A stretch of DNA of 64,000 bases from an uncultured Acidobacteriota bacterium (GTDB taxonomy: Bacteria; Acidobacteriota; Vicinamibacteria; Fen-336): NCBI GenBank assembly GCA_963720545.1, contig OY970399.1, forward strand, positions 3,347,022-3,411,021, written 5' to 3'. The translations under genes and the position numbers were made by a program. Position 1 is the first letter of the stretch; each line of letters opens with the position of its first letter. Below the pieces are notes generated by a model that worked only from the letters and a program-made list of their open reading frames with translations, was not told the DNA's origin and did no database searches. Positions 12,892 through 57,257 of this stretch are shown in pieces.

Positions 12892-14754
12892 ATGCCTGCC
12901 GCCAGGGCCGCAACCACCACGGCGCAGCCGTTCCTCGAGCGCATCCAGGAGGGCGTCGTCGTGTGCGACGGCGCCACCGGCACCATGCTGTACTCGCGCG
13001 GCGTGTTCGTGAACCGCTGCTTCGACGAGCTGAACCTCTCGAACCCCGACCTCATCGAGGCGCTGCACCGCGAGTACGTCGAGGCTGGCGCCGACATCCT
13101 CGAGACCAACACCTTCGGCGCGCACCGCTTCAAGCTCGGCCCGCACGGCTTCGACAAGCAGACCGAGAAGATCAACCGCGAAGGCGCGCGGCTGGCGCGC
13201 GCGGCGGCCGGCGGCAAGGCGCTGGTGGCCGGCTCGATGGGGCCGCTCGGCAAGCCGCTGGCGCCGCTCGGCGGCATCGCGGTGGCCGACGCCGTGGATG
13301 CGTACCGCGAGCAGGCGCGCGGCCTGGTGGCGGGCGGCGTTGACCTGTTCTTCATCGAGACGATGCCGTCTCTCGACCAGGCGAAGGCTGCGCTCGACGC
13401 GGTGCGCGCCGAATCGAACCTGCCGGTGTGCGTGTCGCTCACCTTCAACGAAGAGGGCACCACCCTCTACGGTGACCACCCCGAAGACGTGGTGACGGTG
13501 CTGGAGTCGTGGGGCGTCGCGGTGATCGGCGCCAACTGCAGCCAGGGACCGAACCCCATGCTCGAGACGCTCGAGCGCATGGCGACGGTCGCCACCACCG
13601 CGAAGCTCTCGGCGATGCCCAACGCCGGTGCGCCGGCGATGGTCGAGGGACGCTACGTCTATCTGTGCACGCCCGAATACATGGCCTCCTACGCGCGCCG
13701 CTTCATCGCCGCCGGCGCCTCGATCGTCGGCGGCTGCTGCGGCACGACACCGGCGCACATCCGCAACCTGGTGCGCTCGGTGAAGATGCTGCGCCCCGGC
13801 CGCGAGGTGCGAGCCACCGTCGTGACGCCGCCGCGCGTGCGCGAGACGCCGACACCGGTGGCGCGCGCCGACAAAAGCCCGCTGGGCCGCAAGCTGGCGC
13901 AGAAGTTCGTGGTGTCGGTGGAGCTCGACCCGCCGCGCGGCGCCGACCCCAGCGTCATCGTCGAGCGCGCGCAGTTCTGCAAGGAGAACGAGATCGACGC
14001 CATCAACGTCGCCGACGGTCCGCGCGCTTCGGCGCGCATGAGCGCGCAGTCGCTGTGCGTGCTGCTGCAGGAGAAGGTCGGCATCGACACGATCCTGCAT
14101 TACACCTGCCGCGACCGGAACCTGCTCGGCATCCAGTCGGACCTGCTCGGCGCCTACGCGCTCGGCCTGCGCAACGTCCTCGCGATCACCGGCGACCCGC
14201 CCAAGCTCGGCGACTATCCCGACGCGACTGCCGTCTACGACGTCGACTCGATCGGCCTCATCCGCATCCTCGACCACCTCAACCACGGCTGCGACCTGGC
14301 CGGCAACCTCATCGGCCCGGCGCTCGGCATCCACATCGGCTGCGGCGCCGACCCCAGCAAGCCCGACACCGCTCGCGAAGTGGCGCGGCTCGAGCAGAAG
14401 GTCCTGGCCGGCGCCGAGTACGTCATGACCCAGCCGATCTACGACCCGCGCACCGTGGAGTCGTTCCTGGCGAGGATCAAGCATCTCGACGTGCCGGTGC
14501 TCATCGGCATCCTGCCGCTCTATTCGCACCGCAACGCGGAGTTCCTGCACAACGAGGTGCCGGGCATGATCATTCCCGAAGACATCCGCGAGCGGATGCG
14601 CAAGGCCGGCTCCGGCGAGCTGGCGCAGGCCGAAGGCGTCGCCATCGCGCGCGAGGCGCTGGTGGCGGCAAAGCAACTCGGCGTCTCGGGCGCCTACATC
14701 ATGCCGCCCTTCAACAAGGTCGATCTCGCCGTACGCGTCGTCGAGGCACTGTGA
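12892..14754 (+). CDS. Bifunctional homocysteine S-methyltransferase / 5,10-methylenetetrahydrofolate reductase (YitJ-like fusion)
   Basis: N-terminal Hcy-binding domain (VCDGATGTML, GANCSQGP, GGCCGTTP) fused to a C-terminal MTHFR-like TIM-barrel domain. Confidence 0.8.
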   Translation: MPAARAATTTAQPFLERIQEGVVVCDGATGTMLYSRGVFVNRCFDELNLSNPDLIEALHREYVEAGADILETNTFGAHRFKLGPHGFDKQTEKINREGARLARAAAGGKALVAGSMGPLGKPLAPLGGIAVADAVDAYREQARGLVAGGVDLFFIETMPSLDQAKAALDAVRAESNLPVCVSLTFNEEGTTLYGDHPEDVVTVLESWGVAVIGANCSQGPNPMLETLERMATVATTAKLSAMPNAGAPAMVEGRYVYLCTPEYMASYARRFIAAGASIVGGCCGTTPAHIRNLVRSVKMLRPGREVRATVVTPPRVRETPTPVARADKSPLGRKLAQKFVVSVELDPPRGADPSVIVERAQFCKENEIDAINVADGPRASARMSAQSLCVLLQEKVGIDTILHYTCRDRNLLGIQSDLLGAYALGLRNVLAITGDPPKLGDYPDATAVYDVDSIGLIRILDHLNHGCDLAGNLIGPALGIHIGCGADPSKPDTAREVARLEQKVLAGAEYVMTQPIYDPRTVESFLARIKHLDVPVLIGILPLYSHRNAEFLHNEVPGMIIPEDIRERMRKAGSGELAQAEGVAIAREALVAAKQLGVSGAYIMPPFNKVDLAVRVVEAL

Positions 14755-23249: not shown

Positions 23250-24090
23250 TTACGGCGTGATGTCGAGCGCCACGTCGAGGGCGGGGACGCTGTGCGTCAG
23301 CCAACCCAGGGAGAGCAGGTCGACACCGGTTTCCGCGACGGCGCGCGCGGTTTGCGGGGTGATGCCGCCGGAGGCTTCGGTAATGGCACGGCCGCGGCAC
23401 AGCGCCACGGCTTCGCGCAGGGTGGCGAGGTCCATGTTGTCGAGCAGCACGGTGTCGATCCCGAGCGCGAGGGCGTCGCGCAGCTGGTCCAGCGTGTCCA
23501 CTTCCACTTCCACCTTCGTCAGGTGCCCCGCCGACGCCTGCACGCGGCGGATGGCTTCGGCGATGCCGCCGGCCGCGGCGATGTGGTTGTCCTTCACCAG
23601 CACCGCGTCGTCGAGGCCAAAGCGATGGTTGCTGCCGCCGCCGACGCGCACCGCGTACTTCTCGAGCACGCGCAGCAGCGGTGTCGTCTTGCGGGTGCAC
23701 GTGACCCGTGCGTTCGTGCCCGCGAGGCTCGCCACCACGTCGCGCGTGGTGGTGGCGATGCCGCACATCCGTCCCAGCACGTTCAGCGCCACGCGCTCGG
23801 CGGAGAGCACGGCGCGCGCGCTCCCGGAGAGGCTCGCGATCGATGTGCCGGCCGCAACGTCGGCGCCGTCCGCGTGGCGCACGGTGGACTCCATCCGGGG
23901 GTCGAGCAGCCGCAAGGCTGCGAGTGCTATGTCGACGCCGGCGACGCGTCCCGCGCCACGCAGGATCATCTCGGCCCGAGCCCGTGCGCCCGGCGCCACG
24001 ATGGCATCGGTCGTGACGTCGCCCGCACCGCCCAGGTCCTCGCGCAGCGCCGCTTTCAGGAAGTCCTCGTACAGGAGCGGGTTCAGCATC
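23250..24090 (-). CDS. nadC: Nicotinate-nucleotide pyrophosphorylase (quinolinate phosphoribosyltransferase)
   Basis: 280 aa from ATG 24090; NadC-like N-terminus (LREDLGGAGDVTT) and C-terminal TIM-barrel motifs. Confidence 0.85.
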
Positions 24091-25644
24091 CTGCGGACGT
24101 TAGCGCGTCGGCCACCGCGCGCGGCAGGGCCGACTCGCTGCGGTGCGCCCAGCGCGCGTCGGCAGCGGGGTAGTCCTCGCGGAAATGGCCGCCGCGGCTC
24201 TCGCGTCGCTCGAGCGCGGCCGCGGCGATGAGGGCGCCGCAAAGCGCCATGTTGGCGGCCTCGCTCGCGCCCGGCGGGATGCGCGCCGCGATGGCGGCGA
24301 TCGTGGCGATGGCGCGGCGCAGGCCTTCCTCGTTGCGATAGAGCCCGACGTTGCGCCACATGGTTTCGCGCAGCTCGGCGACCAGCGCCGGGTCCACCTG
24401 CGCCGCGGCGCCGTTCGCCTCCAGCTCGGCGCGCACGCCGTCCGGAACCGCCGGCGCGGACGCATGCAGTGCGCCTGCGATGTCGATCGCCACGCGCCCG
24501 CCGAACACGACGCCTTCGAGCAGCGAGTTGCTCGCGAGCCGGTTCGCGCCATGGACGCCGGTCGATGCCGCTTCGCCGCACGCCCACAATCCGGGCAGCG
24601 AGGTGCGGCCGGCGCCGTCCACCGCGATTCCGCCCATGTGATAGTGCGCCGCCGGCGCCACCGGCACCAGGTCGCGTCGCGGGTCGAGGCCGTGCTGCGC
24701 GCACAAGGCGAACACGGTTGGGAACATTTCCGGGAACGAGGCGCCCACCGCGGTGCGCGCGTCGAGGAACGCCTCGCCGCCGCTGTCGAGCTGCCGCGCG
24801 ATGGCGCGGGCCACGATGTCGCGCGCAGCAAGCTCGCCCGCCGGGTCCGAGTCGAACAGGAAGCGCCGGCCGTGGCCGTCGACGATGGCGGCGCCGTGGC
24901 CGCGCAGCGCCTCGGTGAGCAGCGGCATCGGGTCGTCGCCCACCGCCAGCGCCGTGGGGTGGAACTGGACGAACTCGAGGTCGGCGAGCCGCGCGCCGGC
25001 GCGCGCCGCCATCGCGAGCCCGTCGCCGGTGGCCTCGACCGGGTTGGTGGTGCGCGAATAGACGCGGCCGAGTCCGCCGGTGGCGATGATGACGGCCTTC
25101 GCAAGGTACAGCGTGAGCTCGCCCGAAGCGTCGCGCGCCACGACCCCCTGCACGCGGCCGTTCGCCACCGCGAGGTCGCAGGCGAAGGTCTTCTCGTGCA
25201 CGATGACCCACGGCGCCTGGCGCGCCGCTTCGCTCAGCGCGCGCACGATTTCGGCGCCGGTGGCGTCGCGCGCGTGCAGGATGCGCGGCCGGCTGTGCGC
25301 CGCTTCGCGCGCCAGCGCCAGGTGGTCGTCGGCATCGCGATCGAAGCGCACGCCGAGCGCCAGCAGCTTGCGCACGGTCGCCGGCCCTTCTTCCGTGAGG
25401 ATCGCGACCGCCTCGGCATCGGCGAGACCGCCGGCCACCGCCACCGTGTCGCGCGCGTGCAGTTGCGGCGAGTCGTCCGCCGCCACGGCGGCGGCCATGC
25501 CGCCCTGCGCGTACGAGCTGGAGCCGCCGGCGCCGAACGCCGCCTTGGTGATCACCACCACCCGCCGCGGCGCGAGGTCGAGTGCCGCCGTCAGGCCGGC
25601 AACGCCCGCGCCGACGATGACGACATCCGCTGCGTCGTCCTTCA
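24083..25644 (-). CDS. nadB: L-aspartate oxidase
   Basis: GTG start at 25644; FAD motif VVIVGAGVAGL; flavoprotein motifs (HYHMGG, RLASNSL); overlaps the nadC start by 8 bp. Confidence 0.85.
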
Positions 25645-26664
25645 CCGCGCGGGCTCCGGGCCGATCGCCAGCATGCGCTCGACCGCCTGGCGCGCGCGGC
25701 CGGCAACTTCCGGCGCCACCGTCACCTCGTAGCGCAGGTGCAGCAGCGAGTCGTAGATCTTCGGCAGCGTGATGCGCTTCATGTGCGGGCAGAAGTTGCA
25801 GGGCCGGATGAACTCGGTGCCCGGCGCCATCACCGCGACGTTGTCGCTCATCGAGCACTCGGTGATCATCACCACGCGCGCCGGCCTGCGTTGCGTGACG
25901 TGGCGGATCATCCCCGACGTGGAGCCGACGAAGTCGGCTTCGGCGAGCACGTCGGGCGGGCATTCGGGATGCGCGATCACCTCGACGCCGGGGTTGAGGC
26001 GTCGGTACTCGCGGATCTCGGCGCCGGTGAAGCGCTCGTGCACCTCGCAGTGGCCCGTCCACAGGACGATCTCGACCTTGGTCTTGCTCGCGACGTACTT
26101 GCCGAGGTATTCGTCGGGCAGGAAGATCACCCGCGGTACGTTCAGCGATTCCACCACGCGCACGGCGTTCGACGACGTGCAGCAGATGTCCGACTCGGCC
26201 TTCACCTCGGCCGAGGTGTTGACGTAGGTGACGACCGGCACGCCGGGGTAGCGCTGCTTCAGCAGGCGCACGTCTTCGGCGGTGATCGACTCGGCGAGCG
26301 AACAGCCGGCCCGCGTGTCGGGGATGAGCACGGTCTTGCCGGGGTTCAGCACCTTGGCGGTCTCGGCCATGAACTGCACGCCGGCCATCACGATGACGTC
26401 GGCCTTGGTGTTCGCCGCTTCGCGCGCGAGGCCCAGCGAGTCGCCCTGGAAGTCGGCGACGCCGTGGAAGATCTCAGGCGTCTGGTACGTATGGGCGAGC
26501 ACCACGGCGTTGCGTTCGCGCTTCAGGGTGTTGATGGCGTCGATGTACGGCGCGAACACCGGCCACTCGATTTCCGGGACCACGCCCTTGACGCGATCCC
26601 AGGCTGCCGCGGTGCGCGCGGCCACCTCGGGCGTGAATGCCAGGCTGCTCATGTCTTCGCTCAC
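25642..26664 (-). CDS. nadA: Quinolinate synthase
   Basis: 340 aa; NadA motifs (VLAHTYQ, conserved Cys residues, PECPP). Confidence 0.9.
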
Positions 26665-26669
26665 CTCAT

Positions 26670-26699
26670 ATGCTCAGAAAGAGCATTAACGATGTGCTC
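26670..26699 (-). promoter_or_regulatory. Candidate operator: overlapping AT-rich inverted repeats between the nadA -10 element and the nadA start
   Basis: ATGCTC-agaaa-GAGCAT (26670-26686) and GAGCA-N9-TGCTC (26681-26699) in an otherwise GC-rich region; candidate NrtR site because nrtR lies immediately upstream. Confidence 0.4.
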
Positions 26700-26728
26700 A
26701 GGTTACGACCGCGCGTACGGGCTGTCAA
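26700..26728 (-). promoter_or_regulatory. Candidate sigma70-type promoter for nadABC (TTGACA-17 nt-TAACCT on the minus strand)
   Basis: Reverse complement of 26723-26728 is TTGACA and of 26700-26705 is TAACCT, with a 17-nt spacer, ~35 nt upstream of the nadA start. Confidence 0.45.
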
Positions 26729-26735
26729 GCGGCGC

Positions 26736-27644
26736 TCAGGCGCGGTTGGGGCGGCCGACTCCGGGCGCCAGGCGCTCGCGCCAGACGTCGCGGCGGAAGC
26801 GGAACAGCTCGGCGGGCCGGCCGGCGGTGCGCGCCGCGAACTTGCCGGTGCCTTCCACGAGCCCGGCGGTGGCCATCAGCCTGCGGAAGTTCTGCTTGTG
26901 CAGCCGATATCCGGCGAGCGCTTCCACCAGCCGCTGCAGCTGCAGCAGCGTGAAGGCGCGCGGCAGCAGCTCGAACACCACCGGCCGGTACCGGATCTTG
27001 CCGCGCAGCCGTCCCAGCGCCGTGGCCAGGATGCGGCGGTGGTCGAGGTCGAGCGGCTCGCCGGCCAGCGAGCGCGTGGCTTCGGAAAGGAGCCGCGCTT
27101 CGTAGAGCAACTCGTAGCGCTCGAGAACGCGGTCGGCGTCCCACGAAGCGCCGCGCAGGCCGAAGGCGACGTCGATACGCTCGCGGCGCAGCGCGCGCGC
27201 CTTCTGTTCCTTCTCCTGACGGGTCCACGCATCGAGCGCCGCGGTCAGCGGCTTGAGCGCGGCGGTGCGGCGTTCGCGTCCGTCCTCCCAGGGAAGGAAG
27301 TCGTAGATGTTGCGCCAATGCGCTTCGCCGCCACCGCCGAGCGCGCCCTCGCGGACCAGCGCGAGGTAGGCGACCGAGATCAGGCGCTGGCCATCGGCCG
27401 ACGGCCCGAGACGGTCGCGGTCGCCGAACGTGTAAAGCTGCTCGACGTAGCCGAGCTCGAGCCCGGACTGCTGGCGCACCCAGGAGCGCAGGCCGAGGTC
27501 GAGCGTGCGGTCGCCGGCCGGATCGAGCGGACCGAAGGGCAAGGCGCCCGGATGGCCCCTGCGGCTCACGATGAGGACACGCGGCTCGTCATCGGTGACG
27601 GCGACGACCACGGCGCTCAGCCCGATGACGACGCTCTCAGCCAA
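26736..27644 (-). CDS. nrtR: Nudix-related transcriptional regulator of NAD metabolism (NrtR-like): degenerate Nudix domain plus C-terminal winged helix
   Basis: Nudix-like N-domain whose box reads RSWVRQQSG (no catalytic Glu pair); C-terminal region with LLPRAFTLLQLQRLVEALAG; located directly upstream of nadABC. Confidence 0.7.
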   Translation of the reverse strand: MAESVVIGLSAVVVAVTDDEPRVLIVSRRGHPGALPFGPLDPAGDRTLDLGLRSWVRQQSGLELGYVEQLYTFGDRDRLGPSADGQRLISVAYLALVREGALGGGGEAHWRNIYDFLPWEDGRERRTAALKPLTAALDAWTRQEKEQKARALRRERIDVAFGLRGASWDADRVLERYELLYEARLLSEATRSLAGEPLDLDHRRILATALGRLRGKIRYRPVVFELLPRAFTLLQLQRLVEALAGYRLHKQNFRRLMATAGLVEGTGKFAARTAGRPAELFRFRRDVWRERLAPGVGRPNRA

Positions 27645-27646
27645 GC

Positions 27647-28399
27647 TCAGTCCTTCTTCGCCCCTTGCTTCGCCACCGCCTGGGCGGCGCGCTTCACGGC
27701 TTCAGGATCGCCGAGGTAGAAGTGCCGCACCGGCTTCAGGCCGGCATCGAGCTCGTAGACGAGCGGCACGCCGGTTGGAATGTTGAGCTCGGTGATCTCC
27801 TGCTCGGAGATGCCGTCGAGATACATCACCAGCGCGCGGAGGCTGTTGCCGTGCGCGGCGACCAGCACCCGCTGGCCGGCCCGCAGCGCCGGCGCAATGG
27901 TCTCGTGCCAATAGGGAAGGAAGCGCGCGACGGTGTCCTTCAACGACTCTGTGAGCGGCGCGCTGATGCCGGCGCCGAGATTCTGGTAGCGCGCGTCGCG
28001 GCCTTCATAGCGCTCGTCGTCCCGAGCGAGCGGCGGCGGCGGGTCGCCGTAGCTGCGGCGCCAGACCTTCACCTGCGCCTCGCCGAACTTCGCCGCGGTC
28101 TCGGCCTTGTTCAGTCCCTGCAAAGCGCCGTAGTGGCGCTCGTTGAGGCGCCAGGTTGGAAACACCGGCAGCCACATGAGGTCCATCTCGTCCAGGGCGA
28201 TCCAGAGCGTGCGGATGGCGCGCTTGAGGAGCGACGTGTACGCGAGGTCGAAGGTGTAGCCGCCCGCGCGCAGCAGCCGGCCGGCTTCGCGCGCCTCCTC
28301 GCGCCCCTTCGGCGAGAGGTCCACGTCGGTCCAGCCCGTGAAGCGGTTCTCGAGGTTCCATTGGCTTTCGCCGTGACGCAGCAGCACGAGTGTGGGCAT
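27647..28399 (-). CDS. gpmA: 2,3-bisphosphoglycerate-dependent phosphoglycerate mutase
   Basis: 250 aa; [12 protein letters not shown] catalytic His motif and GpmA-like overall sequence. Confidence 0.9.
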
Positions 28400-29698: not shown

Positions 29699-30538
29699 GT
29701 GAACCGAGTCGCGATCTACGGCGCCGGCGAAGTGGGCGCGACCACGGCGCGGCGGCTCGCGGAACTCGAGTTGTGCCGCAGCATCGTGCTCGTCGATTCC
29801 GACGAAGGGCGCGCCCGCGGCAAGGCGCTCGACCTGATGCAGTCGGGCCCGGTCGAGGGTTACGACACGGCTTTGTCGGGCGTGAGCGTGCTGGAGGCGG
29901 CGGGCGAGTGCGACGCGGTGATTCTCGCCGACGGGCCGCTTTTCTCCGGTACGACACCGGAGCTGCCGTCGGCGCTGCTCGAGCTGGCGCGCTCGGTGTC
30001 GCGCGTGACCGGCGGGCCGGTGCTCGCGGCACTCCCCGAATGCGCGGCGTTCCTCGAGACGGCGGTTCGTTCCGGGCAGCCGCGCGACCGCGTGATGGGC
30101 ACGGCCGGCATCGCTTTCGCCGGCGCCGTGCGGGCCGCGCTCGCTGCGGGGCTCGACGCGCGGCCGGTGGACATCGCGTTGTGCGTGCTCGGCAGGCCGC
30201 CGGCGGACGGCATGGTGCCGATCGAGTCGGCCACCTGCGCCGGCATCCGCGTCGACGCGCTCTCGCCTTCGGCGCTGCGCCGTGCGCTCGAGTCGGCGCG
30301 CAAGCATGTGGCCGGCCCGGTGGCGCTGGCCGCCGCCGCCGCGCGCGCGCTCGCCGGTTTGCAGGGCGGCGCGACGACCTTGTCGCTCACAGTGGTGCTG
30401 GACGGCGAGTACGGCCATCGCGGCATCGCGCTCACGGTACCGGCGCGCCTCGCCAACGGCCGCATCGAACGCGTGGTGGAGATTGCGCTGCAGCCGGTAG
30501 ACCGCGTCGCGTTCGACCGCGCCGCGTCGCGTCGCTGA
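29699..30538 (+). CDS. Lactate/malate dehydrogenase-fold protein, apparently lacking catalytic His and Arg
   Basis: GTG start; Rossmann N-terminus VAIYGAGEVGATTARRLA...VLVD...GKALDL matches the LDH/MDH family; where MDH has ILGGHGD this reads VLGRPPADG; the PRKPGMTR-type Arg loop reads PLFSGTTPE. Confidence 0.6.
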   Translation: MNRVAIYGAGEVGATTARRLAELELCRSIVLVDSDEGRARGKALDLMQSGPVEGYDTALSGVSVLEAAGECDAVILADGPLFSGTTPELPSALLELARSVSRVTGGPVLAALPECAAFLETAVRSGQPRDRVMGTAGIAFAGAVRAALAAGLDARPVDIALCVLGRPPADGMVPIESATCAGIRVDALSPSALRRALESARKHVAGPVALAAAAARALAGLQGGATTLSLTVVLDGEYGHRGIALTVPARLANGRIERVVEIALQPVDRVAFDRAASRR

Positions 30539-30555
30539 CGACGGCCTGCGGCGCG

Positions 30556-31110
30556 CTACAACAGCGCGGGCTTGAGGTCGGCGTGCGCGGACGAGATCAC
30601 GACGCGCGCGATCAGCATGCCTTCCTTGCGCACCGACGCGGCGCCGGCGGCGACGGCCGCCTCGACCGCGGCGACGTCGCCGGTGAGCACCACCAGGCCC
30701 TTGCCGCCCGGCTGGTTGCGTGCCTCGATGAGGGTGACGGCGGCCGCCTTCACCGCGGCGTCGCCGGCGAAGATGGCGGAGGCCACTTCCTTCGTTTCGA
30801 TGATGCCGACGGCGCCGATCTGCGGCACCGCGACGCGGCCCTTGATGGCCGCGGCGAGCTGCGGGTCGGCATTCTGGATGATGAAGTCGTCGAGCAGCGT
30901 TGCGGCTGCCGTCTCGCGGCCGGCGCTGAGCGAAGCCTCGACGTCGGCGACATTGCCGCCGATCATGATGAGGTACTTGCCGCGCGGCACGATGGTGGTG
31001 AGCAGCAGGTCCACCGATGCCCGCTTCAGCATCGCGTCCACGGCTTCGATGCCCTTGGCGATCGACGACGTCTCGATGAAGCCGATGGCCGGCCCGCTCT
31101 TCTCTTTCAT
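30556..31110 (-). CDS. Tandem BMC-domain shell protein (BMC-T, PduT-like)
   Basis: 184 aa from ATG 31110; two BMC domains (AIGFIETSSIAKGIEAVDAMLKRASVDLL and AVGIIETKEVASAIFAGDAAVKAAAVTLI); Val where PduT carries the Fe-S cysteine. Confidence 0.7.
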   Translation of the reverse strand: MKEKSGPAIGFIETSSIAKGIEAVDAMLKRASVDLLLTTIVPRGKYLIMIGGNVADVEASLSAGRETAAATLLDDFIIQNADPQLAAAIKGRVAVPQIGAVGIIETKEVASAIFAGDAAVKAAAVTLIEARNQPGGKGLVVLTGDVAAVEAAVAAGAASVRKEGMLIARVVISSAHADLKPALL

Positions 31111-31145: not shown

Positions 31146-32030
31146 GTGGGACGATGCCCGGCGTTGACCAGCCCCGAAGAAGACCCTGCGCTGCGTGCCG
31201 CGTTCGCCCACTGCGAGCGGATCGCGCGCGCCCATTACGAGAACTTTCCCGTGGGGCTGTTCGTCCCCAGGGCGAGCCAGAAGTACGTGCACTCGCTCTA
31301 TGCCTTTGCCCGCACCGCCGACGATTTCGTGGACGAGCCCGAATACGCCGCGGTGCGCGCGGAAAAGCTCGCGGACTGGCAGCAGCGCCTCGACGCAACG
31401 TATGCGGGGCGGCCCGACGGCCCGATCTTCGTGGCGCTCGGCGAAACAGTGCGCAAGCTCGGCATCGACAAGCGCCTGCTCGACGACCTGCTCAGCGCCT
31501 TTCGCCAGGACACGGTGAAGAGCCGCTACGCCGACTGGGAAGAGCTGCGCGATTATTGCCGGCGCTCCGCCGACCCCGTAGGGCGCCTGGTGCTGCTGGT
31601 GTTCGGCTACCGCGACCCTTCTCTGGCGCGCAGCGCCGATGCGCTGTGCACGGCGTTGCAGCTTGCGAACCATTGGCAGGATCTCGGCATCGACCTCGCG
31701 CGCGACCGCATCTACGTGCCGCAACAGATCCTCGCGCGGCATGGCGTCGACGAAGCCGCGCTGCGTGCGCACCGTGCCGACGAACCGTTTCGCGCGCTGA
31801 TGCAGGAGCTCGTCGCCCGCACCCGCGAGCTGTTCACGATCGCGCGGCCGCTCTGCGACCGGGTCGGCCGCGACCTGCGCTTCGAGCTGCGGCTCACGTG
31901 GCTCGGCGGCTCGGGCATCCTCGACCGCATCGAAGTCGCCGGCTACGACGTGTTCAGGCGCCGGCCGCATCACAACCTGGCGGCGAAGCTGCGGCTCGCA
32001 TGGCACGCGTGGCGCTGGCGGGCGGCGTGA
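31146..32030 (+). CDS. hpnC: Hydroxysqualene synthase HpnC (squalene/phytoene synthase family)
   Basis: HYENFPVG motif and DxxxD-type isoprenoid synthase fold; start codon uncertain (GTG 31146 or TTG 31164). Confidence 0.75.
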   Translation: MGRCPALTSPEEDPALRAAFAHCERIARAHYENFPVGLFVPRASQKYVHSLYAFARTADDFVDEPEYAAVRAEKLADWQQRLDATYAGRPDGPIFVALGETVRKLGIDKRLLDDLLSAFRQDTVKSRYADWEELRDYCRRSADPVGRLVLLVFGYRDPSLARSADALCTALQLANHWQDLGIDLARDRIYVPQQILARHGVDEAALRAHRADEPFRALMQELVARTRELFTIARPLCDRVGRDLRFELRLTWLGGSGILDRIEVAGYDVFRRRPHHNLAAKLRLAWHAWRWRAA

Positions 32031-32034
32031 ACGC

Positions 32035-32883
32035 ATGAACGCCTCGCCGAGCGCCATGGTGACGCGCCGCAGCGGCACCAGCTTCTACGCCGCGTTCGTC
32101 ATGCTTCCGCCGGCCAAGCGGCGCGCGCTCGAGGCGCTCTATGCCTTCTGCCGCATCGTCGACGACTGTGTGGACGACGCCCGGGGCGCCGGGGCGCCCG
32201 GTCTCGACCGCTGGAGCGCCGAAGTGGACGCGGCTTTCGCCGGCCGCGACCCGCGCACCGAGATCGGCCGCGCGATCGCGGCGGCGCTGGAACGCTTTCC
32301 CATGCCGCGCGCCAGCTTCCGCGACGTCATCGAGGGCTGCCGAATGGACCTCGCGCCGCGCGCCTACCAGACGTTCGACGACCTGCGCGTCTACTGCGAA
32401 CGGGTCGCGTCGGCGGTGGGCCTCGCCGCCATCGAGATCTTCGGCTACCGCGATCCGCAGACGAAGGAGTATGCGCGCGAGCTGGGTGTGGCGCTGCAGC
32501 TCATCAACATCGTGCGCGACCTCGGCGGCGATGCGCTCGCGGGCCGCGTCTACGTCCCCGGCGACGACCTCGACGCGCAGTTGCTGACGCGCGAAACGTT
32601 TCGCGCGGCGGCATCGGGCAGCGCCCCGCGCACGCCCGCCGTAGACCGAGTGGTCGCGGCACAGGCCGAGCGCGCCCTGAGCCAATACCGGCACGCGCAG
32701 TCGCTGCTGCCGGCCGCCGACCGTCGCAGCATGCTGCCGGCACAGGTGATGGCAGCCACCTATCGCGAGATCCTCGCGCGGCTCGCCGCGCGCGGCTACC
32801 CGTTCGGCGAGCGCCTGCGCCTCAACCGCCTTGCCAAGGCGCGTGTCGCCCTGCGCACTGTCGCGAGCGAGATGTTCGCGTGA
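32035..32883 (+). CDS. hpnD: Presqualene diphosphate synthase HpnD (squalene/phytoene synthase family)
   Basis: SFYAAF motif and Asp-rich motifs (VDDCVDD); directly follows hpnC. Confidence 0.8.
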   Translation: MNASPSAMVTRRSGTSFYAAFVMLPPAKRRALEALYAFCRIVDDCVDDARGAGAPGLDRWSAEVDAAFAGRDPRTEIGRAIAAALERFPMPRASFRDVIEGCRMDLAPRAYQTFDDLRVYCERVASAVGLAAIEIFGYRDPQTKEYARELGVALQLINIVRDLGGDALAGRVYVPGDDLDAQLLTRETFRAAASGSAPRTPAVDRVVAAQAERALSQYRHAQSLLPAADRRSMLPAQVMAATYREILARLAARGYPFGERLRLNRLAKARVALRTVASEMFA

Positions 32884-34331
32884 AGGTGGCGGTGGTCGGC
32901 GCCGGGTTCGCGGGCATGGCCGCTGCCATCGCGCTGCAGGAGGCCGGCCACGAGGTGGTGCTGCTGGAGCGCCGCGGCGTGCTGGGCGGCCGCGCCACCT
33001 CCTATCGCGATGCGCTGTCGGGTGAAGAGGTGGATAACGGCACGCACCTGATGGTCGGCGCCTACACCGCCACGCGCGAGCTCGCGGCCCGCGCCGGGGC
33101 CGCGGACCTCCTCGAACTGCAGCCGAACCTGCGGATCGACTTCATCGACGACGCCGGCCTGCGGACGCTTCGGTGTCCGGCCCTGCCTGCGCCCTTCCAC
33201 CTGCTGGCCGGCCTTTTCTCGTTCGACATCAGCTGGCGCGCCCGCCGTGACGCCGCGCGCCTCGCGTGGGCCGCGCGCTTCGGCAAGCCGCCCGTGGGCC
33301 TGACCGCCGACCAATGGTTCGAGGCGACCGGGCAGGGCGAGGAGATCCGCACCGCGCTGTGGGATCCGCTGGTTCGCGCCATAGTCAATGAGGATACGCA
33401 GTGCGCCGCCGCCATCCTCTTCTACAACGTGTTCCGCGAGACCTTCCTCCGCGGCCGCGCCGCATCGTCGCTGCTGTTCCTCAAGGCAGGCTTCGCCGTG
33501 CTTCACGAGCGGCTCGCCGCGCATTTCGTGGCGCGCGGCGGGGTGCTGCGCCGGCGCGCCACCGCGCTCGCGGTGCAGGCGCGAGACGGGCGCGTTTGCT
33601 CTGTCCTCGTCAGGCAGGGCGCCGCGGGCCGCGCGTCGATCCTGGCCGGCGCCGGCGGCGGCCGGCTGCAGCTCGACGCCGATGCGGTGGTGCTTGCGGT
33701 ACCGCACTCCGCGGTGCGCCGCCTGGTGCCTGAAGAGTTCCGCATCGTCCGGCCGTTCGACCTGCTCGACAGCTTCGGCGGCGCGCCAATCGTCTCGGTG
33801 GACGTCTGGATCGATCGCCTCGCGGTGCCATACCCCATGGTCGGCTTGCGCGACGAAACCTTCGAATGGGTGTTCGACAAGGGTCGCGCGTTCGGCCGCA
33901 GCGGGCTGCCGCAGCACCTCTCGCTCCTCATCAGCGCGGCGCACGACGCCTGCGCGCGCCCCAATGCCGACCTGGTGGCCGGCGCCGAGCATGCGCTGCG
34001 CCGCTACTTCCCCGGGATGAGCGGGGTGCGCATCGAGCGCTCGCTGGTGCTGCGTGAGCCGCTTGCCACCTTCGCCTCACGTCCGCAGCTCGAAGCGCTG
34101 CGGCCGAAGGCGACGACACCCATCGGTGGGCTGTTCCTGGCCGGCGACTGGACGGCAACCGGGCTGCCGGCAACGATCGAGGGCGCCGTGCGCAGCGGCA
34201 TCGAAGCCGCGCGACAGGCGTGCGCCTGGGAGCAGCAACTCGCATCACCATCAAGCAAGGAGAACGCCGCATGGACATGGAGCCAGGAAGCCGAATCCGC
34301 ACCCGCAGCCGGAGCCGAGCGCTCGGCGTGA
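32880..34331 (+). CDS. hpnE: Hydroxysqualene dehydroxylase HpnE (FAD-dependent amine-oxidase fold)
   Basis: N-terminal FAD motif VAVVGAGFAGMAAA; 4-bp overlap with the hpnD stop. Confidence 0.8.
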   Translation: MKVAVVGAGFAGMAAAIALQEAGHEVVLLERRGVLGGRATSYRDALSGEEVDNGTHLMVGAYTATRELAARAGAADLLELQPNLRIDFIDDAGLRTLRCPALPAPFHLLAGLFSFDISWRARRDAARLAWAARFGKPPVGLTADQWFEATGQGEEIRTALWDPLVRAIVNEDTQCAAAILFYNVFRETFLRGRAASSLLFLKAGFAVLHERLAAHFVARGGVLRRRATALAVQARDGRVCSVLVRQGAAGRASILAGAGGGRLQLDADAVVLAVPHSAVRRLVPEEFRIVRPFDLLDSFGGAPIVSVDVWIDRLAVPYPMVGLRDETFEWVFDKGRAFGRSGLPQHLSLLISAAHDACARPNADLVAGAEHALRRYFPGMSGVRIERSLVLREPLATFASRPQLEALRPKATTPIGGLFLAGDWTATGLPATIEGAVRSGIEAARQACAWEQQLASPSSKENAAWTWSQEAESAPAAGAERSA

Positions 34332-39407: not shown

Positions 39408-40631
39408 CTAGACTTTATCGGCTCCGCTGGCCCGTGGCAGGTACGTTTCGAGCACCGCCTCGATGGCGCGCTGTTCGGGCGAATCCTTGTCGAAGGGGCG
39501 GAACGGTGTTGCGGCGATCGGGCAGGAGCCCGCGTCGAGATGCCGCGTCACCAGCGCCGCGAAGCGCGCCAGCGCCCCCGTCACCAGCGCCGCATCGGTG
39601 CGGCCGTGGGCGCAGTAGCCGTGGCCGCGCATGAACCCGGCGATCTCGTGGACGTTCGCGATTTCGCTGGCGCGCACGGTGCCCGCTTCCAGCCGCGCGA
39701 TGAGCGCCGCCATGTTGGTTGCGCCCACGCTGCAAGGCGGGCACTGGCCGCACGACTCGCGCGCGAAGAAGTCCGCGGCCGACGACACCACCGACAACGG
39801 GCACGCCTGTTCGCACACCACCAGGACCGACGCGGTGCCGAGCGACGAGCCGCGTTCGCGCAACGCCTCGGGCTCGAGCGGCGTGTCGAGGTCGTTGGCG
39901 TCGAGCGGCGCCGCCGACGGTCCGCCCGGGAACACGGCAACCACGACGCCGGTGGCGCCGCCGCCCCAGTCCTCGATCAGCTCGCGCAGCTTGGTGCCGA
40001 GCGGCACGTCATAGACCCCGGGGCGCTTGACGTGGCCCCACAGCGAAACCAGCGTCGACTCCTCGTTGATGAACGCTTCCGGATCGGCGAGGGCGCGCGG
40101 CACGTAGCTGAGCGTCTCGACGTTCTGCACCAACGTCGGCCGTCCGGAGACGCCGGCAGCCGAGGGCAGCGGCGGCTTGGCGCGCGGCCAGGCCTTGTTG
40201 CCCGAGAGCCACTCGCTGACGGCCGTTTCCTCACCGCCGACGTAGGAGTCGTCGCCGCGGCGCACCGTGATCGCGACGCCAGCCGTGTCGATGCGCTCGA
40301 GTTGCTTCACGAGGTTCGCCTCGAGCGCCACGAACGAGCCCTTCAGGTAGACGACCGCCTCACGCGCGCCAATCGCCTTGGCGGCGGCCAGGATGCCGTC
40401 GCACACGTCCTTGAAGCGGGTCAGAAGGATGAAGCGGTCCTTGATCGAGCCGGGCTCGCCTTCGGCGCCGTTTGCCACCACCAGCGCGTCGCCGTCCTCG
40501 GCGAGCACCGCCTGCCACTTGCGCCAGGCAGGAAACCAGCCGCCGCCGCGGCCGCGCAAGGCCGACGACGCGATCCTGTCGATCGCGGCGAAGGGGGTCT
40601 TCTTCGGCGCGCCGCCTGAGGGTTCTGGCAC
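39408..40631 (-). CDS. NuoF-like NADH-binding FMN/4Fe-4S flavoprotein (stand-alone complex I 51-kDa subunit homolog)
   Basis: Motifs [31 protein letters not shown]; no other nuo genes in the window. Confidence 0.7.
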
Positions 40632-46186: not shown

Positions 46187-47603
46187 CGCTCACCTCCGCG
46201 GCGAGCGGCGGCCGCGCGAAATAGTGCGCGATGGAATTGGCGTAGTAGCGCAGCAGCGGATCCTGGCTGCGATCGATGCGGTAGCGAACGACGCCGCCCT
46301 GCGCCGGAACCGGCTCGGCGATGTGGCGCAGGGTCAGCATCACCAGCGCCCGGTCGAGGAGTTCCGCGGCGGTGCGTTCGTCCGCGACGATCGGCGCGCC
46401 GCGTGAGCGCAGTTCGCCGCGCACCGCGTCGATGCGCGTCTCCCATTCCGCACGCTCGATCTCGGCGGCGGTGCCCGCGCGCAACAGGGTCTCGGCCACC
46501 AGGCACACCGGCGTCACCGGCATCACCTCGCCGATCTGCGCCATCACGTGCGCGGCCAGCTCGCCGACCGGGCCCAGGCGCTCATGGCGCGGCAGTTCGA
46601 GGATGCCGGGACGATCGCGCAGCCAGGCATCCACGTCGATCGGCGCGCCGAAGTTGACGCAGGCGCGCCCATAGCGGCGCCCGCGACGCGTCATGAAGCG
46701 CAGCGACACGCGCACCACGTACGCCACCACTTCGGCGAACTGCTCGAGGCGCGACAGCCGCGTGCGCGTCACGTCCAGCTCGCGAAGCAGCGAGCGGTCC
46801 TCGAGCACGCGGTCATAGTTGATCGCGACCGGGATGATGACGAGCGGCCGGATGACGCGCGGGTCGCGCTTCACGCCGAGCAGGTAATCGAGCAGGCCGA
46901 GCTTTGGCTGGCGGAAACGGCCGTCGCGGGTGAGGCCGCCCTCGAGGAAGATTCCCTGGGTCACGCCGTGGCGGGTGATGAGCTGGACGTAGCGCTCGAG
47001 CACCTTGTGATAGAGCGGCTCGCGGTACTTGCGGCGTACGAAGTACGCGCCGAAGCTCTTGAACACCGCCTCCAAGGGCCAGACGCGCGCCCATTCGCCG
47101 ACTGCGTAGCTGATGGCGACGCGGCCGGAGAGCACGTAGGTCACGACCACGTAGTCGGCGTTGGAGCGGTGGTTCATCAGGTACAGCACGATGCTGTCCC
47201 GCGGGATCGCGTCGAGCGCCGCGCGCGCCTCGTAGCCGACGCTCACCTTGTAGAAGAGCGGCACCAGGAAGCGCGCGACACCGTAGGCGAGGCGATAGTA
47301 GGAAATGAGGTTGAACCTGGGGACGATCTCCTCGGCATAACCGCGCGCGCGGCGCTCGGCGTCCTCGACCGAGCCGCCGGCGCTGTGCGCGTGTTCCGCG
47401 ATGGCGGCGCGCACCTCGGGATCCTCGAGCAGCGCGTCGCGCACCTCCTGCGGGGTCTCGCGCTTGAACGGCGCGATCCGCGAACGGTAGCGGCGGCGCA
47501 GGCCGCGGGCCTCCGACAAGGCGTAGCGCCGCAGCCAGGCGCGGCCCGCGAACCCCGCGCCCACCAGCAACAATGCGGCCGCGACCGCGCTCCGTGGGTC
47601 CAC
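46170..47603 (-). CDS. Glycerol-3-phosphate acyltransferase-like (PlsB/GPAT family) acyltransferase, membrane anchored
   Basis: HX4D motif NHRSNADYVV, FLEGGLTRDG and PVAINYD blocks; N-terminal TM; GTG start at 47603 inferred; the upstream part of track ORF 46170..48074 is antisense to xdh and rejected. Confidence 0.65.
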   Translation of the reverse strand: MDPRSAVAAALLLVGAGFAGRAWLRRYALSEARGLRRRYRSRIAPFKRETPQEVRDALLEDPEVRAAIAEHAHSAGGSVEDAERRARGYAEEIVPRFNLISYYRLAYGVARFLVPLFYKVSVGYEARAALDAIPRDSIVLYLMNHRSNADYVVVTYVLSGRVAISYAVGEWARVWPLEAVFKSFGAYFVRRKYREPLYHKVLERYVQLITRHGVTQGIFLEGGLTRDGRFRQPKLGLLDYLLGVKRDPRVIRPLVIIPVAINYDRVLEDRSLLRELDVTRTRLSRLEQFAEVVAYVVRVSLRFMTRRGRRYGRACVNFGAPIDVDAWLRDRPGILELPRHERLGPVGELAAHVMAQIGEVMPVTPVCLVAETLLRAGTAAEIERAEWETRIDAVRGELRSRGAPIVADERTAAELLDRALVMLTLRHIAEPVPAQGGVVRYRIDRSQDPLLRYYANSIAHYFARPPLAAEVSGELAV

Positions 47604-47627
47604 CGCGGGAATATAATCCTTCGCGGG

Positions 47628-49868
47628 ATGCGGGCGATCGGCAAGAGCGTGTTGCGCACGGAGGGCCCGGACAAGCTGTGCGGCGCCACGCGCTACACCG
47701 ACGACATCGAACCCGAGGGTTGCCTGCACGGCGTCACGCTGCGCGCGACCATCCCCTACGGGCGGATCCTGGCGATCGAGAAGGACCCGGCCTTCCCCTG
47801 GCGCGAGTTCGTGGTGGCGACCGCGAAGGACCTGCCGGGGCCCAACCGCGTGCAGCTCATCGAGGACGACCAGCCGCTCCTCTGCGAGGAGTGGGTGCGC
47901 CATCCGTACGAACCGATCCTGCTGGTGGCGCACGCCAACCGCTCGCGGGCGTACGAAGCCCTCCGGCACATCCGTGTCACCTACGAGCCGCACGAGCCGG
48001 TGCTCTCGATCGACGACGCGCTGGCGGTGAAGCAGAAGCTGCGCGGCGAGGACAACGTCTTCAAGTCGTTCCACATCGTGCAGGGCGACATCGACGCGGG
48101 CTTCGCGGCGGCCGACCTCGTAGTTTCAGGCGAGTACACGGTGCCGCACCAGGAACAGGCCTACATCGAGAACAACGTGATGACCGCGTGGTTCGAGGCG
48201 GACGGCACGCTGGTGGCGCACGGCTCGATGCAGTGCCCGTACTACGTGCACAAGGCGCTGCGCGGGTTGTTCAAGCTGAAGGGCGAGAAGGTGCGGGTCA
48301 TCCAGGCGCCGACCGGCGGCGGCTTCGGCGGCAAGGAGGAGTACCCGAACATGATCGCTGGTCACGCGGCGCTGCTGGCGCGCAAGGCGAAGCGGCCGGT
48401 GAAGATCGCCTACGACCGCCACGAAGACATGGCGGCCACCACCAAGCGCCATCCGGCGCGCATCCGCCACCGCACCGGCGTGAAGCGCGACGGCACACTG
48501 GTGGCGCAGGACATCGAGGTGGTCATGGACGGCGGCGCCTACATCACGCTGTCGCCCGTGGTGTTGTCGCGCGGCACGCTGCACGCGACCGGGCCGTATG
48601 CCTGCCCCAACGTGCGCATCCGCTCGAGTGTGGTCGCGACCAACACCGTGCCGAACGGCGCCTTCCGTGGTTTCGGGGCGCCGCAGACGCTGTTCGCCGC
48701 CGAGCTGCACATGGCGCGCATCGCCGCCGAGCTGCGCCTCGACCCCGTGGCGCTGCGCGAGAAGAACGCGGTGCGCCGCGGCTCGGTGATGGCGACCGGC
48801 CAGGTGCTGCGCGAGAGCGTCGGCGCGCGCCAGGCGCTGCAGCGCGTGGTCGCCGACTCCGGCTATCGCCGCAAACGGGTCGAGCACGCCAGGTGGAACG
48901 CGCAGCCGGGCACTGCGCACTGGAAGGGCGTGGGCCTGGCGCTCGTCCACCACGGCTCGGGCTTCACCGGCAGCGGCGAGGAGCACCTCGCGAGCCGCGC
49001 CGCGGTGACGCTGACCCGCACCGGCCGCATTCGCGTGCTCGCCGGCTCCACAGAATTCGGCCAGGGGACCAACACGATGTTCAGCCAGATCGTCGCCGAG
49101 ACGCTCGGCGTCGCGACAGCTCTCGTCGACGTCGCGACTCCCGACACCCGCTTCGTCCCCGACAGCGGGCCGACGGTGGCGAGCCGCACCTGCATGGTCG
49201 TCGGCCGCCTGGTGCGCGACGCGTGCCGCGACCTGCACGCGGCGGTCAGCGGCCGCAAGCCGTTTCCGCGCTCGGCGCGCGACCTGCGCGCGGCCGCGAA
49301 GCGCGTCTGCGGCACGCGCGACGAGGTGCGCTTCGAGCGCCAATACGAGAAGCCGGCCGCCATCACCTGGGACGACACCACCTACCGCGGCGATGCCTAC
49401 GAAGCGTACGGCTACGCCGCGGCGGTGGTGGACCTCGAGGTGGACAAGCTGACGTTCGAGGTGACGCTGCGCCGCGTCACGCTCGCCGCCGACATCGGCC
49501 GGGTGGTGAACCCGGTGCTCGCCGCGGGCCAGGTGATCGGCGGCGCGGCGCAGGGCCTCGGCTATGCGCTCCTCGAGAACCCAGTGTACAAGGACGGGGC
49601 GATGCAGAACGCGCAGCTCACGAACTACATCATCCCGACCGCGAAGGACCTGCCGCAGATCGACGTCGCTTTCACGCCCGCGCTCTACTCGCTCGGGCCG
49701 TATGGCGCCAAGGGTGTGGGCGAGTTGCCGATGGACATTCCCGGGCCGGCGGTGGCCGACGCGGTGCACGACGCCACCGGCCTCTGGATCACCTCGCTGC
49801 CGGTGCTGCCGGAGAAGATCGCTGCGGCGCATGGCGCCCGCCGGCGCGGCACCGCGGTGCCGGCGTGA
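47628..49868 (+). CDS. Xanthine dehydrogenase family, molybdopterin-binding large subunit
   Basis: 746 aa from ATG 47628; XDH/aldehyde oxidase large-subunit blocks (GGGFGGKE, FRGFGAPQ, GQGTNTMFSQIVAE). Confidence 0.85.
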   Translation: MRAIGKSVLRTEGPDKLCGATRYTDDIEPEGCLHGVTLRATIPYGRILAIEKDPAFPWREFVVATAKDLPGPNRVQLIEDDQPLLCEEWVRHPYEPILLVAHANRSRAYEALRHIRVTYEPHEPVLSIDDALAVKQKLRGEDNVFKSFHIVQGDIDAGFAAADLVVSGEYTVPHQEQAYIENNVMTAWFEADGTLVAHGSMQCPYYVHKALRGLFKLKGEKVRVIQAPTGGGFGGKEEYPNMIAGHAALLARKAKRPVKIAYDRHEDMAATTKRHPARIRHRTGVKRDGTLVAQDIEVVMDGGAYITLSPVVLSRGTLHATGPYACPNVRIRSSVVATNTVPNGAFRGFGAPQTLFAAELHMARIAAELRLDPVALREKNAVRRGSVMATGQVLRESVGARQALQRVVADSGYRRKRVEHARWNAQPGTAHWKGVGLALVHHGSGFTGSGEEHLASRAAVTLTRTGRIRVLAGSTEFGQGTNTMFSQIVAETLGVATALVDVATPDTRFVPDSGPTVASRTCMVVGRLVRDACRDLHAAVSGRKPFPRSARDLRAAAKRVCGTRDEVRFERQYEKPAAITWDDTTYRGDAYEAYGYAAAVVDLEVDKLTFEVTLRRVTLAADIGRVVNPVLAAGQVIGGAAQGLGYALLENPVYKDGAMQNAQLTNYIIPTAKDLPQIDVAFTPALYSLGPYGAKGVGELPMDIPGPAVADAVHDATGLWITSLPVLPEKIAAAHGARRRGTAVPA

Positions 49869-50581: not shown

Positions 50582-50582
50582 C

Positions 50583-53572: not shown

Positions 53573-53576
53573 GGGC

Positions 53577-57204: not shown

Positions 57205-57257
57205 CAACCGGTTCCTGGTGAGGGTGTCGGGCACGAGCCATTGTACGCTTCGTCGCG

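Follow-up and report, generated by a model that had tools for sequence, protein, structure and literature searches.

The window analysed here is a stretch of 64,000 nucleotides (64 kb; G+C content about 70%) from an uncultured Acidobacteriota bacterium (contig OY970399.1), and the subject of this report is a pair of convergent genes that it carries. One encodes a 184-aa protein with two bacterial microcompartment (BMC) domains, i.e. a tandem-domain shell protein (BMC-T), and the other a 279-aa protein with the fold of lactate and malate dehydrogenases (LDH/MDH), hereafter called MDH-like; their stop codons are 17 bp apart (Table 1). The MDH-like gene begins 11 bp after the stop codon of a gene for a major facilitator superfamily (MFS) transporter, and this two-gene unit is divergent from gpmA, NrtR and nadABC. 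On the other side, 35-53 bp separate the start of the BMC-T gene from that of hpnC, depending on which of two start codons is used (TTG 31164 is the one called in near-identical contigs, as in the gene calls of locus L006), and hpnC, hpnD and hpnE stand together in one operon, which identifies them as an HpnCDE cluster. The G+C content at third codon positions (GC3) is 0.90-0.94 for both genes of the convergent pair, and the value for BMC-T, 0.94, is similar to that of the adjoining genes. The same layout, with the BMC-T gene in the same inverted orientation, has been found in four independent assemblies (L005-L008) and is therefore no assembly artefact. The imperfect hairpin that spans both stop codons may, tentatively, be a bidirectional terminator; neither a sigma-70-like promoter nor a T-run or convincing terminator was found at the locus.

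Table 1. Genes and features of the BMC-T/MDH-like locus (positions are those of the window)
Feature	Position	Strand	Remarks
MFS transporter gene, 418 aa	28431..29687	+	Pfam MFS_1, E = 9e-57; first gene of the MFS-MDH-like unit
MDH-like gene, 279 aa	29699..30538	+	GTG start at 29699, TGA end at 30538; LDH/MDH fold
Imperfect hairpin (inverted repeat I2)	30511..30562	.	24-nt arms, 71% complementary; across both convergent stop codons
BMC-T(s) shell protein gene, 184 aa	30556..31110	-	ATG at 31110, TAG at 30556; two BMC domains
hpnC	31146..32030	+	TIGR03464, 308 bits (cut-off 250); start GTG 31146 or TTG 31164
hpnD, presqualene diphosphate synthase	32035..32883	+	Best match TIGR03465, 265 bits, just below the cut-off of 279
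hpnE, FAD-dependent hydroxysqualene dehydroxylase	32880..34331	+	TIGR03467, 353 bits (cut-off 283)

An earlier note on this DNA had described a PduT-like shell protein beside a dehydrogenase-fold protein devoid of catalytic residues, and had taken the two for a meaningful pair outside the known types of microcompartment loci. Its description of the genes is borne out by the analyses given below, i.e. the tandem-BMC protein of the PduT type, the lack of further shell genes and signature enzymes in the 64 kb, the LDH/MDH-type Rossmann N-terminus, the missing catalytic His and substrate-binding Arg loop, and the adjoining MFS and hpnCDE genes (Table 1). The pairing itself finds no support: the MDH-like gene is tied to hpnCDE, the BMC-T gene is mostly found alone, and its family is already catalogued. 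The comparison of neighbourhoods that the note had proposed covered about 150 related loci, and in it the MDH-like and BMC-T genes behave as separate modules.

A scan of metagenome contigs with the MDH-like family yielded 80 loci, in 51 of which the downstream DNA could be read. At 44 of these no BMC-T gene follows, and hpnC-hpnD-hpnE usually begins within 0-100 bp; at the other seven the BMC-T gene lies between the MDH-like gene and hpnC. Counted over 96 loci with an MDH-like gene, hpnC is present within 6 kb in 63, an MFS gene in 20 (upstream) and BMC-T in 19, and when 81 MDH-like sequences are arranged by neighbour joining, those from BMC-T-bearing loci group in a single region of the tree, together with the window. 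The junction between the MDH-like gene and hpnC is filled in other lineages by a gene for a 146-aa DUF2231 membrane protein (L157, positions 5968-6408; also L096, L097, L106 and L158), which indicates that this junction simply tolerates inserts. Thus the MDH-like gene is linked to hpnCDE and BMC-T intervenes in only one clade, which argues against a functional pair of the two convergent genes.

The evidence from the BMC-T side points the same way. The protein collection contains at least 819 relatives of the window protein; the best 120 of them are 71-99% identical to it, and several carry the name Vicinamibacteria. When one genome of each GTDB species was scanned, 61 BMC-T loci were obtained, mostly in metagenome-assembled genomes (MAGs) of Blastocatellia and Vicinamibacteria. 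At 51 of the 54 acidobacterial loci (65-75% identity) the flanks, inspected over up to 10 kb, contain no BMC-H, BMC-P, MDH-like or hpn gene, and at the remaining three MDH-like, BMC-T and hpnCDE follow one another in the same direction, an order also present in L009, L010 and L011 (in L009 with 4-bp overlaps on both sides of BMC-T). The neighbours of the lone copies recur within lineages only and show no relation to microcompartments. In the closest sister lineage, whose BMC-T is 85% identical, the two genes are apart again: BMC-T is divergent from, and still beside, hpnCDE, with a kinase/LytTR gene as its other neighbour, and the MDH-like gene from the same samples is placed elsewhere (L159:2732-4814, L160:1621-3703), where a DUF4440/SnoaL-like gene, an unannotated 182-aa open reading frame (ORF) and a gene for a lycopene-cyclase-family flavoprotein lie between it and the MFS gene. 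Because most BMC-T orthologues are solitary and the two genes part in the nearest relatives, the pair lacks support from this side too; what is seen in the window is the product of gene order in one lineage. The sister-lineage neighbours of the MDH-like gene hint at a role of this protein in isoprenoid metabolism.

Some of the lone BMC-T copies keep constant company of their own. A gene for a secreted AstE/AspA-like deacylase is found directly upstream at 16 loci (L021:8756-9832 and 15 others), GvpL/GvpF gas-vesicle genes follow about 1.4 kb downstream at seven (L014:11648-12466 and six other Blastocatellia loci), and radical SAM genes stand beside BMC-T at other loci. The first two associations are probably lineage synteny, though gas-vesicle genes by a shell gene in Blastocatellia are curious.

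As to the protein itself, the Pfam BMC family (PF00936) matches it in two stretches (E = 7e-41), and the closest solved structures are 3NWG (E = 4e-42) and PduT (3N79/3PAC, E = 1e-32), with which residues 6-182 are colinear. Two PF00936 domains in a chain of the characteristic length of about 180-205 aa, a non-permuted topology and a gap-poor alignment to 3NWG and PduT place it among the single-layer tandem-BMC trimers, BMC-T(s). The order of secondary-structure elements repeats in each domain of a monomer model, which has a poor domain-domain orientation (TM-score 0.5 to PduT) and was used for secondary structure and loop positions only. The pore loops read VPRGKY in domain 1 and EARNQPGGKG in domain 2. 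The window protein contains no cysteine and therefore cannot hold the Fe-S cluster of PduT: Pro42 aligns with the ligand Cys of 3NWG (Cys38 in PduT) and is directly followed by the invariant Arg43, at the tip of the pore β-hairpin of domain 1. The domain-2 loop, with its invariant RNQPG, is two residues shorter than that of PduT. Among 74 homologous segments aligned by tblastn (at least 64% identity) 42 are free of Cys and the other 32 have one, outside the pore loop; a PduT-like Cys is present in more distant relatives. Both pore loops are invariant in alignments of 16 and 20 family members, and so are K29 and K121, which correspond to the edge lysine of BMC-H, and the mean column identity of the family is 79-80% across two classes. 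The invariant lysines, and a homologue with the same motifs in a full Elusimicrobia locus (see below), indirectly suggest that the protein would assemble into pseudohexameric trimers able to tile a shell together with BMC-H, and such a trimer would show three arginines at its axis in place of the Fe-S cluster.

A shell of this kind is known in the same organisms. According to the catalogue of Sutter et al. (2021, Nat Commun 12:3809), the ACI (aldolase) microcompartment occurs only in Acidobacteria, there mainly in subdivisions 4 and 6; besides BMC-H and a BMC-P triplet, the main locus encodes a class II aldolase with an encapsulation peptide and a 2-hydroxyacid dehydrogenase, and there are several satellites. 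Two of the catalogued proteins, DMF83_13245 (182 aa) and DMF78_13520 (189 aa), are labelled 'ACI (sat), pduT-like', and in the BMC-T(s) tree of that work both acidobacterial entries fall in a clade otherwise made up of Elusimicrobia SPU1 proteins (SPU, sugar phosphate utilisation). In our set the nearest outgroup of the window protein is likewise Elusimicrobia SPU1. The BMC-T of L052, an Elusimicrobia protein 60% identical to that of the window, shares PRGK and EARNQPGGKG and is encoded within a complete main locus that includes BMC-H and BMC-P genes; another such protein (L065, 62% identical) has a similar locus and the variant motifs ARGK and ARHQGG. The closest named homologues of the window protein belong to Vicinamibacteria and Blastocatellia MAGs, which agrees with a host from subdivision 4 or 6, and the presence of hpnCDE in the window without shc (squalene-hopene cyclase) fits subdivision 6.

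The catalogued assembly QHVJ01 connects these observations. It contains a lone 182-aa BMC-T on a 92-kb contig (L040), 72% identical to the window protein, and also an MDH-like gene, DMF83_22310, on a separate contig (QHVJ01000272.1), where it is followed by DUF2231 and hpnCDE. Under the definition of Sutter et al. (2021) a genome with a typed satellite also carries a main locus, and since a member of the family is so typed in QHVJ01, we read the window gene as an ACI satellite BMC-T(s). Most likely, then, the window BMC-T belongs to a satellite family already in the catalogue and does not represent a new locus type; for the genome of its orthologue (DMF83/QHVJ01) a canonical BMC locus elsewhere is given by the literature, via the catalogue label. 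One MAG thus holds the satellite and, apart from it, the MDH-like-hpnCDE cluster, which together with the catalogue entry also argues against the pairing.

Within the window no other BMC-H, BMC-T or BMC-P gene was detected by tblastn, with the window's own BMC domains and E. coli EutM, EutN, EutS, EutK and EutL as queries; identical queries do detect the shell genes of control loci. Pfam annotation of about 50 genes, which are most of the recognisable ones, revealed no class II aldolase, aldehyde dehydrogenase, 2-hydroxyacid dehydrogenase or phosphotransacylase and no pdu genes. By both approaches the ACI main locus is absent from the 64 kb, and the annotation instead shows genes of housekeeping functions, the nadABC genes and NrtR, and a cluster for purine catabolism. 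A locus of Holophagae, L070, was considered as an acidobacterial source of BMC-H and BMC-P for ACI and was rejected, being an SPU-type locus with an RpiB-DeoC fusion. A literature search for microcompartments in Vicinamibacteria or Blastocatellia returned nothing specific.

The MDH-like protein passes the Pfam cut-off for the N-terminal domain of its superfamily (Ldh_1_N, 32.3 bits against 27) and fails it for the C-terminal one (Ldh_1_C, 15.7 against 22.6); its score with the curated family of bacterial MDHs, TIGR01763, is 107 bits, the cut-off being 352. The fold was predicted with confidence by AlphaFold2 (pLDDT 92.3, pTM 0.90), in the structure prediction that the earlier note had suggested, and Foldseek superimposes the model on the bacterial MDHs 1GUZ, 7AOB and 4CL3 with TM-scores of 0.86-0.91. 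Residues were assigned by a HMMER alignment to Chlorobium MDH (1GUZ) and a 22-row alignment (A2). The nucleotide-binding side is kept: GAGEVGAT supplies the GxGxxG motif and Asp33 the acidic residue at the end of β2, as in a Rossmann-type NAD-binding domain, and G8 and D33 are invariant in the family. The GKALD..SGPV segment is retained as well. The catalytic and substrate-binding side is lost: the loop GLPRKPGMTRED has become DGPLFSGTT-PE (Arg102 and Arg109 lost), SNPLD has become LPECA (Asn140), GVLDAARFR has become GIAFAGAVR (Asp168 and Arg171) and GG-HGDAMVP has become GRPPADGMVP (His195), with a deletion of five residues in the mobile loop and another of ten. All 21 aligned family members share the loss of these six residues.

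The family comprises hundreds of proteins of about 280 aa (48-72% identity) from soil metagenomes and Acidobacteria MAGs in the protein collection, most of which carry the JGI name 'malate dehydrogenase', almost certainly wrongly; among soil Acidobacteria the identity is 50-70%. They have invariant motifs of their own, namely LGxPP, GPVALAAAA, GEYGHRG and an arginine pair (R194 and R195), besides R269, although the His of GEYGHRG is replaced by Gln or Tyr in some members. The shared losses together with these private motifs indicate a conserved protein under selection and not a decaying gene. Its N- and C-termini match those of canonical MDH in the alignments, so there is no extension resembling an encapsulation peptide on the MDH-like protein (HpnC was not looked at).

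Taken together, these data lead us to favour, with a probability of about 0.65, the reading that two independent modules stand side by side in the window, an ACI satellite BMC-T(s) and a cluster of the catalytically dead MDH-like gene with hpnCDE, and that they were brought together by insertion and inversion. In one Vicinamibacteria-type clade the BMC-T gene would first have entered the junction of MDH-like and hpnC; a later inversion on the spot, in the lineage of the window, would have created the convergent pair. The window copy is indeed inverted with respect to the co-directional orthologues in L009, L011, L053 and L060; no flanking inverted repeats that would mark the inversion were found at the locus beyond chance-like GC-rich matches.

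On the microcompartment side, the 184-aa protein would be a BMC-T(s) of the PduT structural type that has lost the Fe-S cysteine, and homology, taxonomy and the catalogue all suggest that it most likely tiles into the facets of ACI, with the main locus (BMC-H, three BMC-P, class II aldolase and 2-hydroxyacid dehydrogenase) elsewhere in the genome. It could thereby give the ACI shell a pore with positive charge, whose substrate would plausibly be a phosphorylated sugar, as the pore-loop residues suggest; an Arg-lined pore for such a substrate is reasonable, since ACI and SPU are both predicted to process phosphorylated sugars. On the squalene side, the 279-aa protein would represent an LDH/MDH-fold family that keeps the adenine-dinucleotide half without the residues for 2-hydroxyacid oxidation, and the cluster (MFS)-MDH-like-hpnC-hpnD-hpnE would make squalene in subdivision-6 acidobacteria. 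These bacteria have hpnCDE but neither shc nor hopanoids (PMC5462960), and hpnCDE without the cyclase implies that squalene is made here for another purpose. HpnE reduces hydroxysqualene using FADH2, as Pan et al. (2015) are cited in PMC7306690. Because the MDH-like protein has retained the dinucleotide half and lost the 2-hydroxyacid site, and because its gene lies directly upstream of hpnC, it is most likely an NAD(P)H-binding accessory of the squalene pathway, which may for instance feed reductant to the flavoenzyme HpnE, gate this supply or have a regulatory function.

Several points weigh against this reading. The co-occurrence of the family with an ACI main locus is known from catalogue labels for one orthologue, L040 has been equated with DMF83_13245 by assembly, length and family without a locus tag, and BMC-T lies inside a main locus at none of the 54 acidobacterial loci. 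The pairing of PduT homologues with a PduS homologue, which the catalogue reports as occasional (Sutter et al. 2021), is not seen here, the NuoF-like gene of the window being 9 kb off. The tree of MDH-like sequences carries no support values, and in the clade with BMC-T the gene is closely packed into the operon, as the 4-bp overlaps in L009 show, so that it would be co-transcribed with MDH-like and hpnCDE, which a pure hitch-hiker would not need. Finally, a rebuilt active site with a new chemistry is as compatible with the data on the MDH-like protein as is a non-catalytic role.

That last possibility, an active enzyme that would act on an isoprenoid substrate in a rebuilt pocket instead of binding NAD(H) without catalysis, is the chief alternative for the MDH-like protein, and we regard it as unlikely, though by no means negligible. 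The family-specific invariants R194, R195, GPVALAAAA, GEYGHRG and R269, the confidently predicted fold, the linkage to hpnCDE and, in one lineage, to the lycopene-cyclase-like flavoprotein and the SnoaL/DUF4440 protein would all suit such an enzyme; the loss of Asn140 and His195 on the nicotinamide side and of the mobile loop, with two deletions, the variable His of GEYGHRG and the lack of any precedent in the literature searched do not. It is rather improbable that the BMC-T proteins of Acidobacteria serve a separate function, independent of any closed microcompartment, as a standalone trimeric channel or sheet-former, so that the 'satellite' label would be a bookkeeping of co-occurrence. This would explain why the gene is always single, never in a main locus among the 54 acidobacterial loci and surrounded by varying neighbours, while being so strongly conserved (79-80% mean column identity across two classes). 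However, its taxonomic range equals that of ACI (subdivisions 4 and 6), the edge lysines used in tiling are invariant, the nearest non-acidobacterial relatives are main-locus shell proteins, and obligately distal shell genes such as those of CcmK3/K4 are known.

Quite improbable, in our view, is a single functional unit of BMC-T, MDH-like and HpnCDE, in which a shell trimer or sheet would scaffold or gate squalene synthesis outside a closed microcompartment with the NAD-binding pseudo-dehydrogenase as a partner. It accounts for the co-directional, overlapping order MDH-like, BMC-T, hpnC in at least 12 loci of one clade (e.g. L009, with the 4-bp overlaps, L011, L053, L060, L075, L079, L080, L083, L101, L123 and L139) and for the persistence of BMC-T by hpnC even after inversion and after the loss of its MDH-like neighbour, and an Arg-lined pore could bind diphosphates. 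Yet the majority of MDH-like-hpnCDE clusters lack BMC-T, and the majority of BMC-T genes lack both neighbours, many of them in Blastocatellia, which are reported to be without hpnCDE except for Chloracidobacterium; moreover, the DUF2231 gene takes the same junction elsewhere, the canonical termini of MDH-like leave no extension fit for an encapsulation peptide, and the same BMC-T subtype serves ordinary shells in Elusimicrobia. A version restricted to the one Vicinamibacteria-type clade is a long shot. There the squalene operon would have recruited the shell protein, which, not enclosed in any microcompartment, would organise HpnD, HpnC, HpnE and the NAD-binding pseudo-MDH, either as an Arg-lined trimeric gate or as a scaffold that forms sheets; if this is true, a shell protein would be moonlighting in lipid synthesis. 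More modestly, the dead MDH alone might be the missing physiological partner of HpnE, for delivery of reductant or for regulation. The idea that one or both genes are decaying remnants could appeal to the lack of catalytic residues in MDH-like, to the isolated and inverted position of BMC-T and to the split orthologue in L010, but it is effectively refuted by the conservation of both families, with invariant motifs, across hundreds of soil contigs; both frames in the window are intact with the GC3 values given above, and the L010 contig also has hpnD and hpnE split, which may reflect assembly errors and not decay.

The other genes of the window deserve a short description. A NuoF-family flavoprotein gene at 39408-40631 (minus strand; Complex1_51K, SLBB and NADH_4Fe-4S domains; TIGR01959 256 bits, cut-off 559) is not accompanied by NuoE or NuoG and stands just upstream of fpg-infA-HAD-def, a synteny shared by L006 and L011. 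A neighbourhood rule of 12 ORFs might label it a 'PduS homologue' near BMC-T; we have rejected a PduS pairing, for this is a standalone NuoF-family flavoprotein 9 kb away, in conserved synteny with fpg, and there is no adjacent PduS. Upstream of the MFS gene, nadC, nadB, nadA and the NrtR-type regulator occupy 23253-27644 (minus strand) and gpmA 27647-28399 (minus strand). The MFS gene could be a member of the NAD regulon, a NiaP-like niacin transporter, which would set an NAD-binding pseudo-enzyme beside NAD synthesis genes. The longest ORF of a gamma-glutamyltranspeptidase gene shares about 110 nt with the 3' part of hpnE (34220-34331), and its true start is probably further downstream, as in L006.

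Farther away, a complete purine-catabolism cluster extends over positions 46548-57405. It encodes the large (46548-49868) and FAD (50571-51449) subunits of xanthine dehydrogenase, a protein that matches DUF6986 very strongly (620 bits; 51452-52768), a membrane urate oxidase of the PuuD type (52772-53572), HIUase (53577-53921), OHCU decarboxylase (53922-54431), allantoicase (54409-55518), an amidohydrolase (55391-56746) and, at its end, a deaminase of the cytidine/deoxycytidylate type, possibly a guanine deaminase (56749-57405). Two further ORFs, both on the plus strand, are a 620-aa one (12892-14754) in which a homocysteine S-methyltransferase domain is fused to a methylenetetrahydrofolate reductase domain, and a 492-aa one (2628-4106) with strong coding bias and no Pfam match at E = 1e-5.

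For the study of microcompartments these results mostly remove a false lead, since a lone acidobacterial BMC-T is the expected distal shell gene of ACI and not a new locus type. At the same time, the replacement of the Fe-S cysteine by an invariant Pro-Arg at the pore tip of the BMC-T subtype shared by ACI and Elusimicrobia SPU1 provides a concrete and testable candidate for the pore that would admit the substrate into two uncharacterised organelles; for both, sugar phosphates are the predicted substrates. What is new is the previously unreported family of dead MDHs tied to squalene synthesis. Subdivision-6 Acidobacteria are abundant soil bacteria in which squalene is made and hopanoids are not. 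A large share of them encode, immediately ahead of hpnCDE, a conserved and catalytically dead NAD-binding protein of the MDH fold, which is an unannotated candidate component of the pathway.

Compared with known systems, the squalene cluster of the window follows the hpnC-hpnD-hpnE order usual for the HpnCDE pathway, as far as it is described in PMC7306690 and PMC5462960 after Pan et al. (2015), and differs from it in the upstream MDH-fold gene, often with an MFS gene as well, neither of which is mentioned in the literature searched; a search for an MDH-like partner of hpnCDE found nothing specific. The MDH-like protein resembles the LDH-like MDHs (TIGR01763; Chlorobium 1GUZ, Chloroflexus 4CL3) in fold, in sequence (about 30% identity), in GxGxxG and in Asp33, whereas it lacks their catalytic and substrate-binding residues, has 279 instead of about 310 aa and is partnered by hpnCDE, not by genes of the tricarboxylic acid cycle. 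With 3NWG of Desulfitobacterium hafniense (50% identity) and PduT (about 40%) the window BMC-T has in common two fused, non-permuted BMC domains, the length of about 184 aa, full-length colinearity and the conserved edge lysines. It departs from PduT proper in the missing cysteine, replaced by Pro42 and the invariant Arg, in the shorter domain-2 loop and in the absence of a pdu operon and of an adjacent PduS, and it scores 98 bits with the PduT equivalog TIGR02526, far below the cut-off of 250. The catalogue entry for the ACI satellite is silent on a position in a squalene cluster, on the missing cysteine and on the Arg pore, and mentions occasional pairing with PduS; the window protein shares with the ACI satellite BMC-T(s) ('Ts_asparagus', 'pduT-like') the host taxa, a matching length (182-189 aa), the lone and distal position of the gene and, as nearest relatives, the SPU1 BMC-T proteins of Elusimicrobia.

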